64,000 nucleotides of DNA from Octopus sinensis (taxonomy: Eukaryota): assembly GCF_006345805.1 (NCBI RefSeq), contig NC_043004.1, forward strand, positions 18,848,001 through 18,912,000, in the 5' to 3' direction. Shown piece by piece: positions 10,891 to 58,067 of this stretch. Made by a program: the position numbers and the translations under genes. Under the pieces are notes generated by a model, which worked only from the letters and a program-made list of their open reading frames with translations, was not told the DNA's origin and did not search any database. Numbering within the stretch: the first letter of the stretch is position 1; every line of letters starts with the position of its first letter.

Positions 10891-13447
10891 TATCACATCA
10901 GTTTGTCCATTTATACGGAGACGTTACTTTTCTATTTTAGTGTGACGTAAGTAAATGGTAAATTAAAATTAAAATACTTACCTTATATTGACTTAAATGT
11001 TAAATCTAAAATATTTTTCTTTATTTTCAATTTGTGAATATGTCTAGAGGTTGCACCAATTCACCAGATATATTCTACTTTGTCCGCAGGCAATTCACCC
11101 CTTCAGATTTCCAGAGCAATATTACTTCTTTGTTGAAGCGCTTCTGTTTAGCTTATTTTGGCAGCAAACCGGGAGACCAGGAGAAGCCATTTGCACCCCA
11201 CAAAGCTTACAAGAGTTGCATCGGTAAGCTGCAAATGTGGTCAGTTGGAAAACTTAAATTTATACCCTTTGGAGAATCAATGGTATGGCGGGAACAGATG
11301 AACCACTAAAGTAGGTGGATTCAACAAGAAGACTAAAGGTTGCATAATATACCCAAATATTCCTTCAGCAATAATGCCTGTCCCACACTCAGATGATATT
11401 CCTGTACCTGTGCCACCTGAACCATGGGGAATTTTATCACATCTGATGATACTAATGAGACTATGAGCCACCAAAGTAGACTATGAGCCACTAACAAATA
11501 ACGATCCCAAATTCTTCAACCATGTTGAGCTCAATGACTTGGTTAGAGACCTTAACCTTCGAAAAGAAAGTGCACAGTTACTTGGATCTATACTGTAAGA
11601 ACACAAGCATCTAGCTCTTGGAACAACACTCGCTTCGTACCGTCATCGTGAAATGGAATTCATTTAGGTCTTTGAGAAAGTATTCTTTAGTTTTCTGTTC
11701 AAATATTTCTGGCCTTATTAAACCCATGGGTATGTCGTACAAAGCAGATAAATGGAGGCTTTTTCATTGCTTCTTCTAACAGAAGTTTAAAGGCTGGTCT
11801 TCTCCATAATGGCAACACAACTCTATCTGTGTCAATTGACCATATCGCTCAAATGCCAGAAACTTACGAAAATATGAAGACAGTATTAACTGCAATCAAG
11901 TACCATAATCAGAATTTTCTCATTTCTGATGATTTAAAAGTTATTGCTCTCCGACTAGGTCTTCAAGAGGAATACACTAAGTATCACTGTTTTCTGTGTC
12001 TTTGGGATAGTAGGGTAGACAGCCAGTACAATGAACAAAAAGGCTGGTCACCAAGAACCAGCTTCTTACTCGGAAATCACAACGTGAAAACTGTGCCACC
12101 ACTCCACATAAAATTAGGGCTTATGAAAAATTTTGCGAAGGCCCTGAACAAGAATGGAGCTACTTTCAAGTACCTGGAGTCAAAGTTTCCTCGTATGAGT
12201 GAAGGCAAGCTAAAAGTAGGACTCTTTGTTGGCCCTCAGATTTGGGAACTGATGATGGACAAACATTTTGAGGAAGCGTTAGCAGGTGTCGAAGTCAATG
12301 CCTGATTTTCCTCCAAAGAGGATTGTCCAAAAACAAGAGGCTAAACATAGAAGGGACAAACAAGAGGCTAAACATAGAAGGGACAAAACAAGAGGCTAAA
12401 CATAGAAGGGACAAACAAGGACAGACAAAGAGATTAAGTCGATTATATCGACCCCAGTGCGTAACAGGTACTTGTTTAATCGATCCCGAAAGGATGAAAG
12501 GCAAAATCGACCTCGGCGGAATTAAAGTCAGAACGTACCGGTAGACGAAATGCCTATTTCTTTACTACCCACAAGGGGCTAAACACAGAGAGGACAAACA
12601 AGGACAGACAAACGGACTAAGTCGATTACATCGACCCCAGTGCGTAACTGGTACTTATTTAATCTACCTCGAAAGGATGAAAGGCAAAGTCGACCTCGGC
12701 GGAATTTGAACTCAGAACGTAGCGGCAGACGAAATACCGCAAAGCATTTCGCTCGGCGTGCTAATGTTTCTGCCAGCTTACCGCCTTCAACTGCCCAAAA
12801 CCTCTTGGAAAACAGCCGCTCCCCACATTATGAAAAAATCATTCAAGACCTAGAATGAATGTGAAGATGCATTTTTTGCACTCGCATCTTGACTATTTTC
12901 TCCAGAATTGTGGCGACTACAGTGAAAAACAAAGAGAAGCGCAGTTCCATCAAGACATTTGCACCATGGAATCCCGATGCGATTCGAGGGTAAATGGAAT
13001 GGCAGCATGATGGCGGATAACTGCTCGACATTGAAACGTGATGGTCTCTATGCACAGCATAAGCAGAAATCAAAACAGTGCTCCTTCCTTTGAATCAATA
13101 TGTAGGCTAAACAATTAGGAGCATATTTTTTACATTCATTTGGTTTGATGTTGATAATTCTGATTCATTTCATTATGAACGTGCTTCCTTTCATGTTGAT
13201 TTGTAAAACATATGTTCTTAAAACTAACAGAATGTGCTTTTCCTTGATTAATTGCTTCATTTTAATGAGGTAACAATTTATTAAAAATTCACATTTTTAC
13301 CTTATTATTAATTTGTATTTTATTCAACATCTTTATGTGACAGGGCAAAATGGCTTCGATATTTACAGTCAGCAAGCCAAGAGTATGTAACATCACTTCT
13401 ATGAATAAAAATAAATATAAAACAAATTCCCAAATGCAGATCAGTTT
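10890..13447 (+). mobile_element. Chapaev3-type (CMC superfamily) DNA transposon, decayed, inserted in the Dong-C copy
   Basis: Transposase motifs AYFGSKPGDQEKPFAPH, MVWREQMNH, DLKVIALRLGLQEEYTKYHCFLCLWDSR, PPLHIKLGLMKNFAKAL, KFPRMSEGKLKVGLFVGPQI, KMHFLHSHLDYF. Right terminus degenerate, left TIR missing. Family name assigned from recalled motifs. Confidence 0.75.
12330..12787 (-). mobile_element. tRNA-derived SINE, family 1: head plus duplicated body, inserted in Chapaev3
   Basis: Minus-strand head GGCGG..AGCTGGCAGAAAC.TTAGC, B box GAGTTCAAATTCC, and central GTCGACTTTGCCTTTCATCCTTTCG. A second body copy follows, then a ~28-bp tail repeat x3. Confidence 0.85.
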
Positions 13448-15856: not shown

Positions 15857-17480
15857 TTACATAGAAAGTATTTTGTGTAGGATATGAGCAGTTCCCATGA
15901 GCACTATCTTTTGAATTTCTGCCATTTTTGGGTTTCCTGGTATCTGAGTTAGGTAGCTATCAGCCCCTTTTGCTATCATTCCCAGGGCACCTATGACAAC
16001 AGGTAATGTTTTAGTCTTCAGGTTCCACATTTTGCTGATTTCTATTTCATGATCTTTATATTTGCTCAGTTTTTGGTAGGTCTTGACAGATACGTTTATA
16101 TCGATTGGGACAGTCATATCAATGAGGAGGCATGTTCTTTGTTTGAAGTCTTTCAATATGATGTCTGGCCTATTTGCATCTATCTTTCTGTCAGTTTGAA
16201 TGGTGAAGTTCCAGAGGAGTGAGATGTGGTCATTTTCAAGCACTGGGGGTGGTTTGTGTTCCCACAAGTTTTTTTCATGGGGCAAATCCAGGTTTTTACA
16301 GATTACCCAGTGAATATATTGTGCAGCTCTATCGTGCCTGTTGAGATACTCTGTAGGCGCTAGAAGACTGCACCTGGAGACCACATGGTCAATGGTTTCA
16401 TTTTGTTGCTTGCATACACGACACGTTGGACTGCTTCTGATCTTTAATATGTTGGCCTGGTAGTTTCTTGTTGGTAGGCATTGATCTTGAGCTGCTATGA
16501 TAAACCCCTCTGTTTCAGATTTTAAGCCAGAGGCCATTAGCCATTGATGGGTCAGGGCTTTGTCAACATCTGCATTATTTGCTCTCTTTGGGTATTTGCC
16601 ATAGAGAGGTTTTTCTTGCCATTTATCATTCAGAATATCTAAGGCCGCAGATTTAGCACGGGTTTTCATGCGCTTAGCTTTTTCTGTGCCTGTTTCTTGT
16701 ACGTCTATCTCTAATTCCGAAATTTGTTGTATTCGGGATTCACTTAGATATTCCTTTGCCTGTTTTGTTACTGAGTATGATGCTTTCTTGTTTTCATGTT
16801 TTGAGACAAGTTTTAACATCCAGTCCTCAGAGTTTTTCAGGTAGGTGTCTAGGCCAATTGTAGCAATCTTCATTGTTATTGCCAGTTGTAAAAGTCCACG
16901 GCCTCCCTCTTTTCTTGGCAGATAAAGTCGTTCTGTATCTGCCTTAGGGTGGTGCATTCTATGCAGTGTCAACAGTTTTCGTATTTTTCTGTCAAGATTA
17001 CATATTTCAGTAATTGACCAGTTAACGATATTGAAACTGTAAGTCACGACTGGTATGGCTAATGCATTGATCGCTTCGATCCTGTTTCTCGCATTCAGCT
17101 CTGTCTTGAGTATTGCTCTTACTCTGCGATAGCATTCTCTCCTGATCCTTTCCTTCATCTCTGAATGCCTTATTCCTTCTCCTTCAATTACCCCTAGATA
17201 CTTGTAGTTCTCTGCTGGGTCTAATTCTTTTATGACATTCTGCTGGTCAAGGTTAACGTTAGATGTTTCTGTCATTTTTCCTTTGATAAAGGTAGATTTT
17301 GCGCACTTATCGAGACCAAATTGCATTCTGATATCATCACTGAATTGTTTGACAATCGCTAGTAAGCCCTTGAGTTGTTGGTCATTGACAATCGCTAGTA
17401 AGCCCTTGAGTTGTTGGTCATTGACAATCGCTAGTAAGCCCTTGAGTTGTTGGTCATTGACAATCGCTAGTAAGCCCTTG

Positions 17481-17483
<3 letters not shown>
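15857..17483 (-). CDS. RT C-terminus, CCHC zinc finger and PD-(D/E)xK restriction-like endonuclease of Dong-A (no native start)
   Basis: FGLDKCAK, YKYLG, HHPKADTERLYLPRKEGGRGL, CRVC...ETIDHVVSRC, RHD, RPDIILKD..LLIDMTVP..K..KY. The upstream part of the listed 625-aa ORF is microsatellite read-through. Confidence 0.9.
17349..17483. repeat. 36-bp tandem repeat (3.75 copies) at the 5' junction of Dong-A
   Basis: TTGACAATCGCTAGTAAGCCCTTGAGTTGTTGGTCA starts at 17349, 17385 and 17421, with a partial copy at 17457. Confidence 0.95.
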
Positions 17484-17522
<39 letters not shown>

Positions 17523-17603
17523 GTTGTTGTTGTTGTTGTTGTTGTTATTATTATCATTGTTATTATTACTACTATTACTATTATTATTATTATTATTATT
17601 ATT

Positions 17604-17796
17604 GAGTGAGAGAGCAGTGCATGCCATCGAAGTGACACTGGGGTAAAATATACGAAGCCCAATATACCCATCATGACTACCCGTCTGATAAAGGTACACC
17701 AGGCACATGCATCACAACCATATGTGCGCGACATGGTGATCTCATATCAAGATAAACAGCACATGACCTTGCAGGTGGGGCCCAGTTAGAATTTTC
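17604..17796 (-). mobile_element. Second copy of the TTA-associated non-coding repeat, interrupted by the foldback element and resuming at 19710-19745
   Basis: Homologous to 8821-9025. The sequence resumes after 19709 (GAATTTTCTTCAGGTTGAGTAGCCCATCCCGCTCAA). Confidence 0.8.
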
Positions 17797-35790: not shown

Positions 35791-35862
35791 TGCTTTCTAA
35801 TCTATGTATCAATACCAATATAGAGCTGCGCACAGTAGTGTAGTGAAAGAACGTGATAAAAA
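35791..35862 (+). mobile_element. Possible extreme 3' stub of Dong family C between TAA tracts
   Basis: GTAGTGAAAGAACGTGATAAAA resembles the Dong-C 3' tail at ~9395-9420 (reverse complement GCAGTGAAGGCATGTGATAAAAA). Confidence 0.45.
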
Positions 35863-35915
<53 letters not shown>

Positions 35916-35918
<3 letters not shown>

Positions 35919-36959
35919 GCTAGGCGCATGAAAACCCGTGCCAAAACTGCGGCCTTAGATATTCTGAATAATAAATGGCAAGAAAAACCTCTCTATGGCA
36001 AATACCCAAAGAGAGCGAATAATGCAGATATCGACAAAGCCCTGACCCATCAATGGCTAATGGCCTCTGGCTTAAAATCTGAAACAGAGGGGTTTATCAT
36101 AGCAGCTCAAGATCAATGCCTACCAACAAGAAACTACCAGGCCAACATATTAAAGATCAGAAGCAGTCCAACGTGTCGTGTATGCAAGCAACAAAATGAA
36201 ACCATTGACCATGTGGTCTCCAAGTGCAGTCTTCTAGCGCCTACAGAGTATCTCAACAGGCACGATAGAGCTGCACAATATATTCACTGGGTAATCTGTA
36301 AAAACCTGGATTTGCCCCATGAAAAAAAGTGGTGGGAACACAAACCACCCCCAGTGCTTGAAAATGACCACATCTCACTCCTCTGGAACTTCACCATTCA
36401 AACTGACAGGAAGATAGATGCAAATAGGCCAGACATCATATTGAAAGACTTCAAACAAAGAACATGCCTCCTCATTGATATGACTGTCCCAATCGATATA
36501 AACGTATCTGTCAGGACCTACCAAAAACTGAGCAAATATAAAGATCTTGAAATAGAAATCAGCAAAATGTGGAAGCTGAAGACTAAAACAATACCTGTTG
36601 TCATAGGTGCCCTGGGAATGATAGCAAAAGGGGCTGATAGCTACCTAACTCAGATACCAGCAAACCCAAAAATGGCAGAAGTTCAAAAGATAGTGCTCAT
36701 GGGAACTGCTCATATCCTACGCAAAATACTCTCTATGTAACCTCAAGGTTTAAAACAACCATAATTTTCGGTTTAAAAAAAAAAAAAAAAAAAAAAACTT
36801 TTTTTTTTTTAGACATTCATTAGTACAACATCCCCACCCCCCAAATATATGGCACACTAGGCATAACAACAACATGAACTTCCAACCCTGTTGTCTCTTG
36901 AGGTCTCTGGGTGAGACTTGGAGCCAACTTGTACAAATATAAAGCAAAAGTCAAACATA

Positions 36960-44748: not shown

Positions 44749-44808
44749 GTATTGGTCCAATTTCGGGGTTAATTCATAACAAATTTTCCCCTCTTCAGCG
44801 GCAAATAC
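44749..44808 (-). ncRNA. Degenerate minimal hammerhead-like motif
   Basis: Minus strand reads GUAUUUGCCG CUGAAGA GGGG-(19 nt)-CCCC GAAA UUG GACCAAUAC. Core and stem II intact; stem I only partly paired. Confidence 0.45.
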
Positions 44809-49052: not shown

Positions 49053-49205
49053 TAACAACAACATCGAAAATACCTTAGGAATGAGAAGCCAGATTCAAAC
49101 TTTCCTCAAGACACCTGATGAAGGCTGGAGGGTATATCAGCCGAAACATTGTGTTAATAACGAACAACATAAGGACAAATATCCGTCAAATGTAAATAAT
49201 GTTCA
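48858..49205 (+). mobile_element. tRNA-headed short retroelement with internal (TAA)n and a type I hammerhead (49110-49155)
   Basis: A box TGGCGTAGTGG at 48905 and a degenerate B box at ~48948-48959. Hammerhead reads GACAC CUGAUGA A GGCUG-(10)-CAGCC GAAA CAUU GUGUU. Confidence 0.7.
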
Positions 49206-49673: not shown

Positions 49674-50234
49674 CGAGGGTGAGTCAAATATTAATGCCAT
49701 TTTGTTTAGGACCGGTATAATTACCAGCACAGGAACATGTATCATACACCAAAATGAAGCTGGTTATCTGTAAATTACATCTCTACATCTCCACATAGTC
49801 GCTGTTTCTCTCATTAGCAATGTCCCACCTTCGATTGAGAGCATGTATCCCTGCCTCGTAAAATTCTGTTGACTGTTCTTTGAGCCACTTCTTCACTACA
49901 ATTTTCACTTCCTCTTCACTAGAATAATGTTTGTCTCTCAAAACCTCTTTCATAGGGCCGAAGAGATGATCGTCTGAAGGCGCTAAATTATTCCAGTGAC
50001 GAGGAAGTGAAAACTGTAGTGAAGAAGTGGCTCAAAGAACAGTCAACAGAATTTTACGGAGCAGGGATACATGTTCTCATTCGAAGGTGGAACATTGCTA
50101 TTGAGAGAAATGGTGATTATCTTGAGATGTAGGGAAGTGATTTACAAAGGACCAGCTTCATTTTGATGTATGATACATGTTCCTGTGTTGATGATTGTAC
50201 CTGCCTAAAAAAATTAATTTTTGACTCACCCTCG
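49674..50234. mobile_element. Mariner-derived hairpin MITE built from two right ends
   Basis: TIRs CGAGGGTGAGTCAAA flanked by TA. Both arms encode the transposase C-terminus (EEVK.VVKKWLKEQSTEFY.AGIH.L.RRW..A.ERN.DY.EM*) in opposite orientations. Confidence 0.88.
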
Positions 50235-51490: not shown

Positions 51491-52552
51491 AAGATGGAAG
51501 CAAACCCTATATTAACGGTTATGTATATATAAATACATACATATATATATATATATATACATGCGCATATTCATGCAAGTATATATACATGATGACTGCC
51601 AACTCGTGTTGCCCGCCTTTTCGTAAGTACACTCATGCGAACGCCACGAGCAGCCATTTTTGTGATAGGTCTTACATTTTTTCAAGCTATGCCTGTGCAT
51701 GATATTTTCTTTTAATAGTGGGAGAGAATTTGCACAAATCCAGTCCCATTCTTTGAACATAGACAACATAAACTTGAAGGGAATAACTAGTCTACATCAT
51801 CGAATACTGTCAGTGTCGCAGGTTTTCTGTAAGAGTTTCTCCCTTCTAGAGAGATATTGTAACAACAACAGAGTCTCCTCCCACTCCCAGTGGGCCAACT
51901 GTGCGCCTGGACAACAACCCTGGTATTTCCACGTCTCTGCGCGTGCACATACGTACATGCATACATATATACATACATACATACATACATACACACACAC
52001 ATACATACATAGATACATATATACATACACACACACAAACAAACAAAAATACCTTGTTGTTGATGGTGAACTTTCAATGAAGTAGCCTTGGATCTAGGTT
52101 AGGAATCGACTCTTTCTTCATTGGCAACGACTCTTGAAATAAACTGAATAATGGTGTACATACAGTTTATTCTTCAACAAAAATAGGATTGAAAGCGATT
52201 TCAAAGTTTTGACCAGCTAAGCGTTATCGGACCGTTCAATGATGGCTTAGATGGCCTAATCTTCGAAGTCACAGTCAATTTTATTATTTTTAAAGAATAA
52301 TAAATATGTTCTCTCACATCAAGCAATCCTTCATATTAATGTATTGTGTTTATTATAATTGAACATAGAAACAAACATTAACGCGTGTGTGTATGTGGCT
52401 GTGTGTGTGCACATGCGTGTGTGTGAGAGAGTGAGTATGTGAAAGAGTGTTTGTGTGTGAGTATACGGATATGCATATATATATATATATATATATGTGT
52501 GTGTATATGTATGTACACTTATTCATATATATGAATATACACATGTATATCA

Positions 52553-52586
<34 letters not shown>

Positions 52587-52839
52587 GTATATATAAAAAT
52601 ACAAAATGGGACAAGAACGCAAAACATTCAAGTAGACGATACAAAAAATACGGACGGGTTATTCGAAGCCTCTGTTCTTCAGTCAAGAACCGGATCATCC
52701 TCGCAATTTCGGCTGATTAATCTTGAGATTGCTCCGCTCTGGCCAGCCCCAAGGAAAAACTAAGCTACGAGCATTATATTTCTTGGGAAAAGGATCGAAT
52801 GTATACGAAACAAGGACAGAAAAACGGACGATGTAACGC

Positions 52840-52903
<64 letters not shown>

Positions 52904-53159
52904 TTTAACAATTAAGGATATCTCTTAATAAGGGATCTTAACAAGAAATTATCGGGTAGCTAGCGTGAAAACCTCATAAAAGAAAAGAATTCGAAAATAA
53001 TTTTTTTCTTTTGAACAAATTAATTATATCTATATTGCATAGAGGGCATTATTACACATAAATGCCTCACACTAGGAGGGACAAAGTCATTACTACCAAA
53101 ATTATACTAATCATACCCAAATGCAGTTTTTCAAAGCAAGACATTTAAAAAATGAATTT

Positions 53160-53216
53160 AGTCTGTATCACCGTGATTTCACATTCAACTTACGTCTAAT
53201 GATCCTCAGCAGAACT
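53160..53216 (-). ncRNA. Type I hammerhead ribozyme, copy 1 (1-nt deletion in stem I)
   Basis: Same motif as 54148-54205, except + strand AGTCTG instead of AGTTCTG. Confidence 0.7.
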
Positions 53217-53642
53217 GATTCTGAACACATCATAAATAAACTACCAACCTTACGTAGCGAAGACGAACAGACAACTGCTCACTCCGGCCAAGCACATGGA
53301 ATGTTTATAAATCATATATCCGGTAAATGGCGGGCTTTTTACGAACTGCATGTCGGGTAATGAAAAGTATTTCGGAATAAGTTTAACAATTAAGGATAAT
53401 CTCTTAATAAGAGATCTTAACAAGAAATTATCGGGTAGCTAGCGTGAAAACCTCATAAAAGAAAAGAATTCGAAAATAATTTTTTTTTTTCTTTTGAACA
53501 AATTAATTATATCTATATTGCATAGAGGGCATTATTACACATAAATGCCTCACACTAGGAGGGACAAAGTCATTACTACCAAAATTATACTAATCATACC
53601 CAAATGCAGTTTTTCAAAGCAAGACATTTAAAAAATGAATTT

Positions 53643-53700
53643 AGTTCTGTATCACCGTGATTTCACATTCAACTTACGTCTAATGATCCTCAGCAGAACT
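53643..53700 (-). ncRNA. Type I hammerhead ribozyme, copy 2
   Basis: Reverse complement of 54148-54205. Confidence 0.8.
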
Positions 53701-54147
53701 GATTCTGAACACATCATAAATAAACTACCAACTTTACGTAGCGAAGACGAACAGACAACTGCTCACTCCGGCCAAGCACATGGAATGTTTATAAATCATA
53801 TATCCGGTAAATGGCGGGCTTTTTACGAACTGCATGTCGGGTAATATGCAATATAGATATAATTAATTTGTTCAAAAGAAAAATTATTTTCGAATTCGTT
53901 TCTTTTATGAGGTTTTCACGCTAGCTACCCGATAATTTCTTGTTAAGATCCCTTATTAAGAGATTATCCTTAATTGTTAAACTTATTCCGAAATACTTTT
54001 CATTACCCGACATGCAGTTCGTAAAAAGCCCGCCATTTACCGGATATATGATTTATAAACATTCCATGTGCTTGGCCGGAGTGAGCAGTTGTCTGTTCGT
54101 CTTCGCTACGTAAGGTTGGTAGTTTATTTATGATGTTGTTCAGAATC

Positions 54148-54205
54148 AGTTCTGCTGAGGATCATTAGACGTAAGTTGAATGTGAAATCACGGTGATACA
54201 GAACT
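54148..54205 (+). ncRNA. Type I hammerhead ribozyme, copy 3
   Basis: Stem I AGUUCUG/CAGAACU (7 bp). Core CUGAGGA at 54155-54161. Stem II U-CAUU-A-GAC-GUAA-GUU-G-AAUG-U. GAAA at 54184-54187. Stem III AUCAC-G-GUGAU. AUA triplet, predicted cut after 54198. Confidence 0.8.
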
Positions 54206-54327
54206 AAATTCATTTTTTAAATATCTTGCTTTGAAAAACTGCATTTGGGTATGACTAGTATAATTTTGGTAGTAATGACTTTGTCCCTCCTAGTGTGAGG
54301 CATTTATGTGTAATAATGCCCTCTATG

Positions 54328-54374
<47 letters not shown>

Positions 54375-54629
54375 TATGTATTTATACCTATTCATATGTA
54401 TGAATATTCACATGTATATCAAATGTATACAATATATATATATATAAGGATGTGACAATGCTGGGGCACGAGTGTATGTGGGTGTGTGAATGTGAGTATA
54501 TAGTATGATTTTGGTCGATTCTTTTTGTTTTCTTTGCTCTTTATCTGGAAGAAATATGTTTTATTTTATACTGGAAGATATATGTCAATATATCAGAGGG
54601 AATAGCTGTTTGACAGTATCCACACTTCC

Positions 54630-56656: not shown

Positions 56657-56693
56657 TAATGCTTCTCGGTAATATTACCAGATTAATCGGTTC

Positions 56694-57140
56694 TGGGGTC
56701 GATGTAATCGACTTAATCCTTTTGTCTGTCCTTGTTTGTCCTCTCTGTGTTTAGCCCTTTTTGGGTAGTAAAGAAATAGGTATTTCGTCTGCCGCTACTT
56801 TCTGAGTTCAAATTCCGCCGAGGTCGACTTTGCCTTTCATGCTTTCGGGGTCGATTAAATAAGTACCAGTTATGCACTGGAGTCGATATAATCGACTTGA
56901 TCCGTTTGTCTATCCTTGTTTGTCCCCTCTGTGTGAAGCCTCTTGTGGGCAGTAAAGAAATCGGTATTTTGTCTGCCGTTACGTTCTGAGTTCAAATTCC
57001 ACCGAGGTCGACTTTGCCTTTCATCGTTTCGGGGTCGATAAATTAAGTACTAGTTACGCATTGGGATCGGTGTAATCGACTTTATCCTTTTTTCTGTCCT
57101 TGTTTGTCCTCTCTATGTTTAGCCCCTTTTGAGCAATAAA
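56694..57140 (+). mobile_element. Headless tandem array (~2.4 x 183 bp) of the SINE family 1 body
   Basis: Units start near 56694, 56877 and 57060. B box and GTCGACTTTGCCTTTCAT are present in the full units; no A-box head. Confidence 0.85.
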
Positions 57141-58067
57141 GAGATAAAAAGAAAATGCCTAAGACCATAGCTTATCGTATGAAAGGATTGTGCATACAAG
57201 AAAAATTCGTAATAATTATAGAAAGTGACAGGATAGTGGTGGTTTGTCGGACCTTAATTAAAGACTTACTAGGTCAGAGCTCTCCGAGAACGAAAGAGAA
57301 ACTATAGGCATATATTATAACATATATATCACAGTATGAAATAAAGAACACTATAGTTATCACATCAGGCACTGTCTGTCATTCTTCATGGCCTAGGAGG
57401 GTGAAGTATGATTTGAAATTACATGGAAACATGGTATATCTAGAGCCAGGAATATGTGAGATAGAGAGAAACATTCAACACACTACCTGGTCAGGAGATA
57501 GTAGAATCTACTTGATCAGAATTTATTTGGAGAAACAGCACTGGACGCAATTTGAAAATTCAAATTAAGTTAAATATAGTGTAAATTGGAACAGTAATAA
57601 ACAGCAAATGTAGATAGTCAAAGAGAGCAGTTATATAAACTTTATAAATTGACAGTCATGTAATTGTTAAGAAATAAATTATTGATTTTTATTGCTTAGA
57701 CAGTTCTTTTGAAATGATTACATTTATGTATGTTGAATACAGGTATATAAACAGATATAAATATGGTTGTGTGGTAAGAAGCTTGCTTCCCAATCACAAG
57801 ATTCCAGGTTCAGTGCTACAGTACTAAATTTAACAAACAAATCCTTTTTTTTTTCCTTATTTTTAATAGTGGCACTTACAAAAGGCACAGAAAGTGTGTC
57901 AATAGCCAGCTGGAGGAGGTTTCTTCCTGGGGCTACAAGCTACAGTGTCATCCACCATAAAGCGTTAGCCACATTTAAGTGGCAAATACACTTCACGATG
58001 TCGTGCAGCCACTTTGTATACCTCGCTCAAAGATGTATATATATATATATATATATACATACATACA

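Follow-up and report, generated by a model that had tools for sequence, protein, structure and literature searches.

Two fixed 3' ends and paired head-to-head arms in a hammerhead-bearing retrozyme family of Octopus sinensis

A 64,000-nt stretch of the Octopus sinensis genome (contig NC_043004.1; hereafter the window) contains a non-coding unit of about 480 nt that occurs twice in tandem and a third time in inverted orientation. How did such an arrangement arise, and from what kind of RNA was it copied? An earlier note on this DNA had read it as a cDNA copy of a circular or multimeric ribozyme RNA, with the inverted copy as one complete circle in a different permutation. In the accessible text of the relevant papers, animal non-LTR retrozymes are defined as a class, with RNA circles and mobilization by Penelope-like elements (PLEs) proposed as a hypothesis (Cervera & de la Pena 2020, PMC7229834), and in vertebrates retrozymes are tied to pLTRs (Li, Clavereau & Pollet 2026, 10.64898/2026.07.22.740005). 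From the genome sequence, we consider it likely that the locus is a non-autonomous non-LTR retrozyme inserted by PLE double-ended TPRT, with a circle as the probable template.

The locus and its family

Tandem Repeats Finder, run on the window, returned a repeat with the limits of the tandem part (Table 1), a period of 484, 2.0 copies and 98% matches, bearing out the claimed tandem of ~479-nt units. By alignment, the inverted copy is real as well and does begin and end at one internal point, within a single 11-nt stretch, and reads across the unit junction. The three copies are 94.6 to 98.9% identical to one another per aligned segment and differ by 1 to 3 substitutions plus small indels; these differences, and the recurrence of the layout at 60 loci, support the earlier argument against an assembly duplication. 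Contigs from other runs span the tandem junction (e.g., X5 record 11). The tandem has its hammerheads on the minus strand and the inverted copy on the plus strand, so the two parts, or arms, are joined 5' end to 5' end. Both 3' ends point outward, and (TA)n tracts flank the locus on both sides. The whole locus is one insertion, arranged like a textbook PLE: tandem units, an inverted copy truncated at its 5' end, and a 'tail' on one side only.

Table 1. Features of the locus (window coordinates) and copies of a 1.7-kb repeat found elsewhere (locus coordinates)
Feature	Position	Strand	Remarks
A arm, 1.97 tandem units	52899..53845	-	5'-truncated at about unit position 16; fixed 3' end A inside (TA)n; locus L070
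B arm, inverted copy, about one lap + 10 nt	53845..54334	+	5' end at about unit position 338; fixed 3' end B inside (TA)n
Head-to-head (5'-5') arm junction	53845..53845	.	1-nt overlap (junction gap -1)
Complete cut-to-cut monomer, 484 nt	53166..53649	-	The sole monomer that the locus could release; register that closes the conserved fold
Left (TA)n target tract	52840..52898	.	
Right (TA)n target tract	54335..54365	.	
Hairpin followed by (AT)n-like B site	54297..54334	+	Best (AT)n match in the unit, 10/12 nt; putative second priming site
Covarying hairpin followed by internal copy of A site	53931..53986	+	(AT)n match 5-7/12 nt; putative structure-defined initiation site
Type I hammerhead, B arm	54148..54205	+	Predicted cut after 54198; 7-bp stem I; U.U at base of stem II
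Type I hammerhead, unit 2	53643..53700	-	Stem I intact; predicted cut after 53650 on the minus strand
Hammerhead, unit 1	53160..53216	-	1-nt deletion in the 3' strand of stem I
1.7-kb repeat copies	L090:2844-4538, L110:1430-3130, L079:2147-3417, L136, L140		Absent from window

Directly beside the insertion, window positions 52596-52840 (minus strand) hold a 5'-truncated piece of a different (TA)n-resident repeat family; related pieces elsewhere among the loci, and the third target of the 1.7-kb element discussed below, are 75 to 86% similar to it. The low-complexity flanks at 52462-52553 and 54331-54422 resemble each other (83% over 92 nt), perhaps reflecting an old duplication around both insertions.

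A descriptor scan found type I hammerhead motifs in the units. In the B arm, stem I (54148-54154/54199-54205) is followed by CUGAGGA (54155-54161), a stem II capped by a GUAA loop, GAAA (54184-54187) and a short stem III, with AUA ahead of the predicted cut; the core, the GNRA cap, the cleavage triplet and the cut position named in the earlier note can thus all be read in the letters. That note had assigned a 7-bp stem I to every copy. The motif is present in all three, and the 7-bp stem I in two. The deletion in unit 1 is either a mutation or an assembly error, and since it damages stem I, the window alone falls outside the rule of the 2026 preprint that all units of an active copy be complete. 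The hammerhead model scan that the note had proposed gave a different outcome: Rfam returned no hammerhead match up to E = 10. The isolated motifs fold no better than shuffled sequences (z = -0.69, 1.40 and -0.26), and the catalytic fold lies 2.4 kcal/mol above the MFE. The U.U pair of stem II that adjoins the core is the family consensus. Described animal non-LTR retrozymes differ from the present units, in which stem II is long and closed by U.U. The U.U pair and a catalytic fold above the MFE may indicate weak activity. The motif is nevertheless not a chance occurrence, because a 27-mer spanning it is found 357 times genome-wide, against 0 for the reversed control. Mismatches in the hammerhead core number 3 of 2793, compared with 381 of 109,896 elsewhere in the unit copies, and the free N7 position is polymorphic (C 171, T 51, G 31). 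Two more hammerhead-like motifs in the window (~44750-44805, minus; 49108-49160, plus) are unrelated to the unit; motifs related to them are present in L075, L130 and L163.

Searching the 2.72-Gb genome with the unit gave 883 candidate places, 40 of which were scored and yielded 210 matches; at these 40 places nearly all full-length matches are 94 to 98% identical. The unit is 481 nt long with a GC content of 0.335, and its longest sense ATG ORF has 33 codons before the stop. The element is dispersed, lacks LTR structure and an ORF of its own, and forms ORF-free arrays of up to 10 units. Judged by these counts, the family is young, with hundreds of genomic copies in (TA)n tracts, and the earlier description of a non-coding, hammerhead-bearing, tandem and dispersed element of the animal non-LTR retrozyme kind holds. 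With that class the element shares the non-coding tandem, a type I hammerhead in each unit, a GC content of 33%, dispersed monomers to multimers and the co-occurrence of PLEs. The ~480-nt unit slightly exceeds the 150 to 450 nt given in the accessible text of PMC7229834 and falls inside the 51 to 972 bp given in that of 10.64898/2026.07.22.740005. We therefore regard this, from its sequence features, as a real non-LTR retrozyme family, belonging to a class already known and itself previously undescribed as far as we found. No earlier description of the family or of the end rule reported below was found in the openly accessible literature; the accessible text of PMC13282606 and PMC10886601 likewise contains no description of this ~480-nt retrozyme family.

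The counts that follow come from 100 loci: the 40 scored places, with the window's own locus (L070) among them; 20 loci from a hammerhead pattern list, mostly chosen for having no exact A end nearby; and 40 loci from the first rows of the A-end list. L083, L090, L110 and L079 (complex or insert-bearing) were left out of the breakpoint counts; diverged pieces in L034 and L048 and sites within 3 nt of a gap were dropped too. The arm classification of L086 lacks a short A piece seen in a separate comparison. The pieces in L034 and L048 hint at further relatives.

Two fixed 3' ends and a shared template

Sense 3' ends of the family fall at two places 133 nt apart: A, which is exactly at unit position 481 for 76 of the 85 arms, and B (~348). 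Across the genome, exact A ends number 255 and exact B ends 289, and the reversed controls give 0. The 5' ends vary across loci. In 69 of the 100 loci two arms meet head to head, and these comprise 60 A/B, 0 A/A, 0 B/B, 5 A/other and 4 A/edge pairs; the rest are 30 single arms and 1 complex locus. A B arm stands alone in 15 of the 100. Even where loci were selected solely because they have an A end, 27 of 34 pair it with B and none with a second A. The ends run into (TA)n in 80 of 85 A and 65 of 76 B cases (145/161 together), and the internal G of the B site is retained at 8 of 76 B ends. Both sites lie directly 3' of a predicted hairpin, and B is the better (AT)n match of the two (Table 1). 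Note that because the insertions sit inside (TA)n, any target-site duplication is illegible.

Random circular permutation is rejected by these end counts. The inverted copy of the window is accordingly not a free permutation, as the earlier note had it: its 3' end is one of two family-wide fixed ends, and its 5' end marks where the copy is truncated. In the tabulation of copy ends that the note proposed, the 5' ends vary and the 3' ends are fixed at A and B. Fixed ends common to all copies, which the note had said would count against its reading, thus exist for the 3' ends; the other such finding, copies that are only pLTRs attached to PLE ORFs, was not made, as no arm among the 100 loci enters a PLE ORF. 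At G000:C3:37477809-37477860, two A ends lie tail-to-tail, 29 nt apart; these are probably two insertions in one (TA)n tract.

In the 69 two-arm loci, 114 of 124 minor alleles are common to both arms. Permutation gives a mean allele sharing of 7% and a maximum of 23%, and none of 2000 permutations reached the observed value. The N7 base is the same in both arms at 34 of 35 loci. Most likely, to judge from the paired arms, both were copied from one RNA by a PLE-type enzyme acting at both ends of a DNA cut. The 5' ends of the arms lie within 3 nt of each other in 8 of 69 loci (1.5 expected), the A- and B-arm lengths are correlated (rho 0.41), and in 29 of 58 loci it is the B arm that reaches the more 5' position. 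Collision-type twin priming, with the A arm halting at B, was rejected, as it fits just 4 of 75 A arms.

By these standards the window is an ordinary A/B insertion with a B arm of about one lap, as in 5 of 72 B arms. These 5 belong to the 37 B arms in which a lap is completed; similarity to the window arm was the ground for choosing 2 of the 5, and otherwise the figure is 3 of 11. Three of 75 A arms stop in the same interval on the first pass. A halt of the RT at its own primer after one lap is suggested, though only suggested, by these numbers, and the same goes for the one-lap B arm as a pointer to a circle.

The monomer taken from cut to cut folds at z = -6.5. Its fold can be compared with that of a sister family (1458 candidates, ~75% identity to the window family, ~476-nt unit), the copies of which are 98 to 99% identical among themselves (L088, L136, L140, L177-L191). 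The sister family shares the hammerhead; its stem I is compensated, and its stem II is canonical and short, at 4 bp, with a Watson-Crick or G.U pair in place of the U.U. It also has the same branched fold, its helices kept with compensatory pairs, and the same A/B head-to-head layout in loci with both ends visible. Between the two families, 18 of 117 consensus pairs carry changes on both sides; this covariation is essentially one family-to-family comparison, and stem I is misaligned in the 117-pair count. In the long helices, which are conserved, sequence from upstream of B is joined to sequence from downstream of A, which implies that the selected RNA runs through site A. Site A would thus be an internal start site, and the monomer defined by the hammerhead the folding unit.

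From this we propose the following route. Arrays would be transcribed and then cut at the hammerhead, probably as a dimer, a form we propose because stem III is short; dimeric hammerheads with a short helix III are described in the accessible text of Cervera & de la Pena 2014 (PMC4209133). The ~480-nt monomer would be ligated into a circle, on which RT can lap and so regenerate a uniform array out of a single molecule. An RT-endonuclease of Penelope-like type, provided in trans, would cut both strands in (TA)n, and both target 3' ends would be extended on one RNA. One end would start at site A, which lies immediately 3' of a hairpin and has little homology to the target, and the other at site B, (AT)n-like and 3' of the second hairpin, where the target can anneal. 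Each cDNA would proceed until a stall or the RNA end, and the two cDNA ends would then be joined. The PLE-type double-ended insertion step is the part of this route of which we are most confident, and we hold it to be very probable.

Circle, linear multimer and other explanations

Whether the template is a circle is a closer question, and the better evidence for a circle is the array-wide fixation of new variants rather than the one-lap B arm. At sites covered by at least 3 units, 96 non-majority variants are fixed in all units, 23 are partial and 171 are singletons, and 16 locus-wide haplotypes occur among the 28 long loci. Rolling-circle RT predicts such repeated growth of arrays out of a single monomer. 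The distribution of 5' breakpoints also changes abruptly at the predicted cut. Among 152 arms, 17 breakpoints lie just 3' of it and 1 just 5' in 25-nt windows (P = 1.5e-4), and 53 against 16 in 80-nt windows, both window sizes being our choice; the 85 arms from loci chosen without a ranking by likeness to the window give 11 against 0 and 31 against 8, respectively. This step could also come from a structural stall at stem I. A second hotspot, at unit positions 261-280 (22 events), falls on a long helix and has the appearance of a stall of this kind. Most passes read through the cut site, with nearby stops in 9 of 121, 5 of 57 and 3 of 58 first, second and later passes, an even rate that fits a structural stall or partial multimer cleavage as well as it fits a circle. 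Unit-specific variants recur between loci in 26 pairs where 15.5 are expected (P = 0.01), and L060 and L068 are mosaics. On the variant patterns, we lean slightly toward a circle, made by ligation of the ~480-nt monomer after the hammerhead cut.

The main competitor keeps the same PLE double priming and replaces the circle with a linear multimeric array transcript carrying a slow or inactive hammerhead; arrays would then be homogenized or lengthened in the DNA, by unequal crossover or conversion, or else by end-to-end RT jumps between cut monomers. Shared 5' ends and correlated arm lengths favor it and suggest that many templates are linear, notably in short insertions. It also draws on the constant stop rate per pass, the mild excess of shared unit-specific variants, the U.U pair in stem II and, in the accessible text of PMC11167929, the finding that uncleaved RNA is the main substrate of PAc in vitro. 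Against it, new variants are fixed in every unit and both arms far more often than they are partial, and the diversity of haplotypes would need repeated passage through a single monomer followed by regrowth to 3 to 10 units, while 5' truncation alone would cut array length in every generation. We regard a linear template as rather unlikely for the family, though it deserves serious weight. A snap-back route, in which one cDNA is primed at A and its folded-back 3' end goes on copying the cDNA until the (AT)n-like B can pair with the opposite target end, would account for the alleles common to both arms, for near-palindromic junctions with equal 5' ends (e.g., L097, L101, L109 and L116) and for microhomology at B. 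But a copy of the A arm cannot reach beyond the 5' limit of the A arm, as B arms do in half of the 58 loci compared, and loci with a B arm alone do not fit. As a general route it is contradicted by B arms that outreach A arms, and we judge it improbable; it may explain a minority of short insertions.

The units could instead be solo pLTRs of an autonomous PLE, which would make the window a truncated PLE insertion. The layout is of PLE type, and of the 57 retrozyme families of Xenopus, 24 have matches to annotated elements, almost always PLE termini (accessible text of 10.64898/2026.07.22.740005). Here, however, 5' ends meet the opposite arm or the flank and never a PLE ORF, RT fragments near L045, L065 and L071 sit outside the arms, arrays reach their full length without an ORF, and the units show no similarity to 34 PLE loci; we consider solo pLTRs a touch less probable again than snap-back copying. 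An assembly artefact, either a palindromic long-read chimera or a collapsed repeat, would be natural for an inverted duplication within a microsatellite, and among the contigs of four runs no contig crosses the whole locus. The arms nonetheless have different, family-fixed ends, their layout recurs at dozens of loci and in the sister family, and the copies differ by substitutions, so that we give this explanation almost no credence.

Mobilizer, parasites and related systems

The tandem and inverted layout, the one-sided tail and the (TA)n target all support the earlier suggestion that Penelope-like machinery is the likely mobilizer. Searching the genome for GIY-YIG (PF01541) gave 5029 candidates, among them intact, (TA)n-resident frames of 775 to 781 codons with RT and GIY-YIG. 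These PLE candidates have the CX4CX2C linker of the Neptune/Nematis/Naiad kind, and their 3' ends lie in (TA)n. When both family units were compared by BLAST with 34 of the 5029 GIY-YIG loci (20 + 14), short AT-rich matches alone resulted, and hence no autonomous partner sharing the unit sequence was found among those 34. No ORF-linked copies were found among the 20 hammerhead-positive loci without an exact A end nearby, and in the 100 loci no RT + GIY-YIG ORF lies in the unit or is joined to any arm. Young autonomous PLE families with intact frames of 780 to 781 codons are present at L163-L174 and carry a hammerhead-like motif (e.g., L163:5745-5800) with a U3-A8 core, ~95 nt from the 3' end. 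In this distance the 781-aa PLE family differs from the retrozyme, where it is 137 and 270 nt.

Retrozymes appear to be targets themselves. A separate repeat of 1.7 kb (663 candidates) has one ~394-aa ORF1-like zinc-knuckle frame and no RT. It is inserted at the same site of the retrozyme unit (equivalent to window 54083-54101) in three loci with three haplotypes. Two further loci have it at the corresponding site of a sister-family unit, and every remaining locus but one has it at a single site within a third (TA)n-resident repeat. The insertions have 14- to 23-bp duplications, and the 1.7-kb repeat's own 5' end corresponds to retrozyme unit positions ~100-115. From these features it looks like a site-specific LINE-like parasite of retrozymes, which we take to be Tx1-like, and in L079 it may have been co-mobilized with the retrozyme. 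Elsewhere in the window, SINE-like arrays of 183- to 184-bp units (56693-57146 and 12388-12735) have a 3' tail resembling that of the 1.7-kb ORF1-only element. Long frames at 15857-17746 (minus) and 35847-36740 (plus) are presumably non-LTR RT/endonuclease-like, and 49826-50090 is a near-perfect palindrome of 265 nt.

Much of what we describe for the retrozyme has counterparts in PLEs. In the accessible text of Craig 2021 (PMC8557442), insertions of EN+ PLEs have an inverted 5'-truncated copy, a 30- to 40-bp tail that is often at one end only, and a (TA)n bias, and the origin of the tandem and inverted ends and of the one-sided tail is stated to be open. With the Neptune/Naiad-type PLEs described there, the retrozyme shares tandems, an inverted 5'-truncated copy, a one-end extension and (TA)n targeting; it differs in having no ORF and an end spacing of 133 nt instead of a 30- to 40-bp tail, and, unlike EN+ PLEs, it follows a near-absolute rule of one A and one B end. 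According to the accessible text of Frangieh 2024 (PMC11167929), a PLE protein, PAc, cleaves and extends both strands, RT starts at two internal sites that define the tail, and hammerhead cleavage is dispensable for insertion in vitro. The retrozyme resembles PAc in its two putative internal RT starts downstream of the hammerhead and in the proposed extension of both strands; one of its start sites is homologous to the target, whereas PAc starts at non-homologous sites. Cleavage in vitro was seen for one of nine Xenopus retrozymes and not for the other eight (10.64898/2026.07.22.740005, accessible text). We found no analysis of insertion ends or of a two-arm structure in the accessible text of that preprint or of PMC7229834, and the word 'inverted' is absent from the main text of the latter.

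In L1 twin priming, two target ends prime on one RNA and produce a head-to-head inversion. The retrozyme differs in that its putative second priming site has a fixed place within the element, its arms overlap over much of their length, each of them sometimes several units long, and it has no poly(A) tail.

An abundant and polymorphic family such as this turns the hypotheses of PLE mobilization and tail formation into counts. The exact priming sites and the 480-nt RNA are now named and intact candidate RT-EN ORFs are present in the same genome, which makes an in vitro test straightforward. The fullest form of our reading, to which we give slightly less than even odds, is twin-primed rolling-circle RT: a PLE dimer would use both ends of a (TA)n break to copy one ribozyme-made RNA circle, starting at a site defined by structure and at a built-in site for docking to the microsatellite, with each subunit making its laps independently, and the retrozymes would themselves be parasitized by an ORF1-only LINE-like element. 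If true, twin-primed rolling-circle RT would be genomic proof that retrozyme circles are a transposition intermediate, and it would account for the one-sided tail of PLEs.
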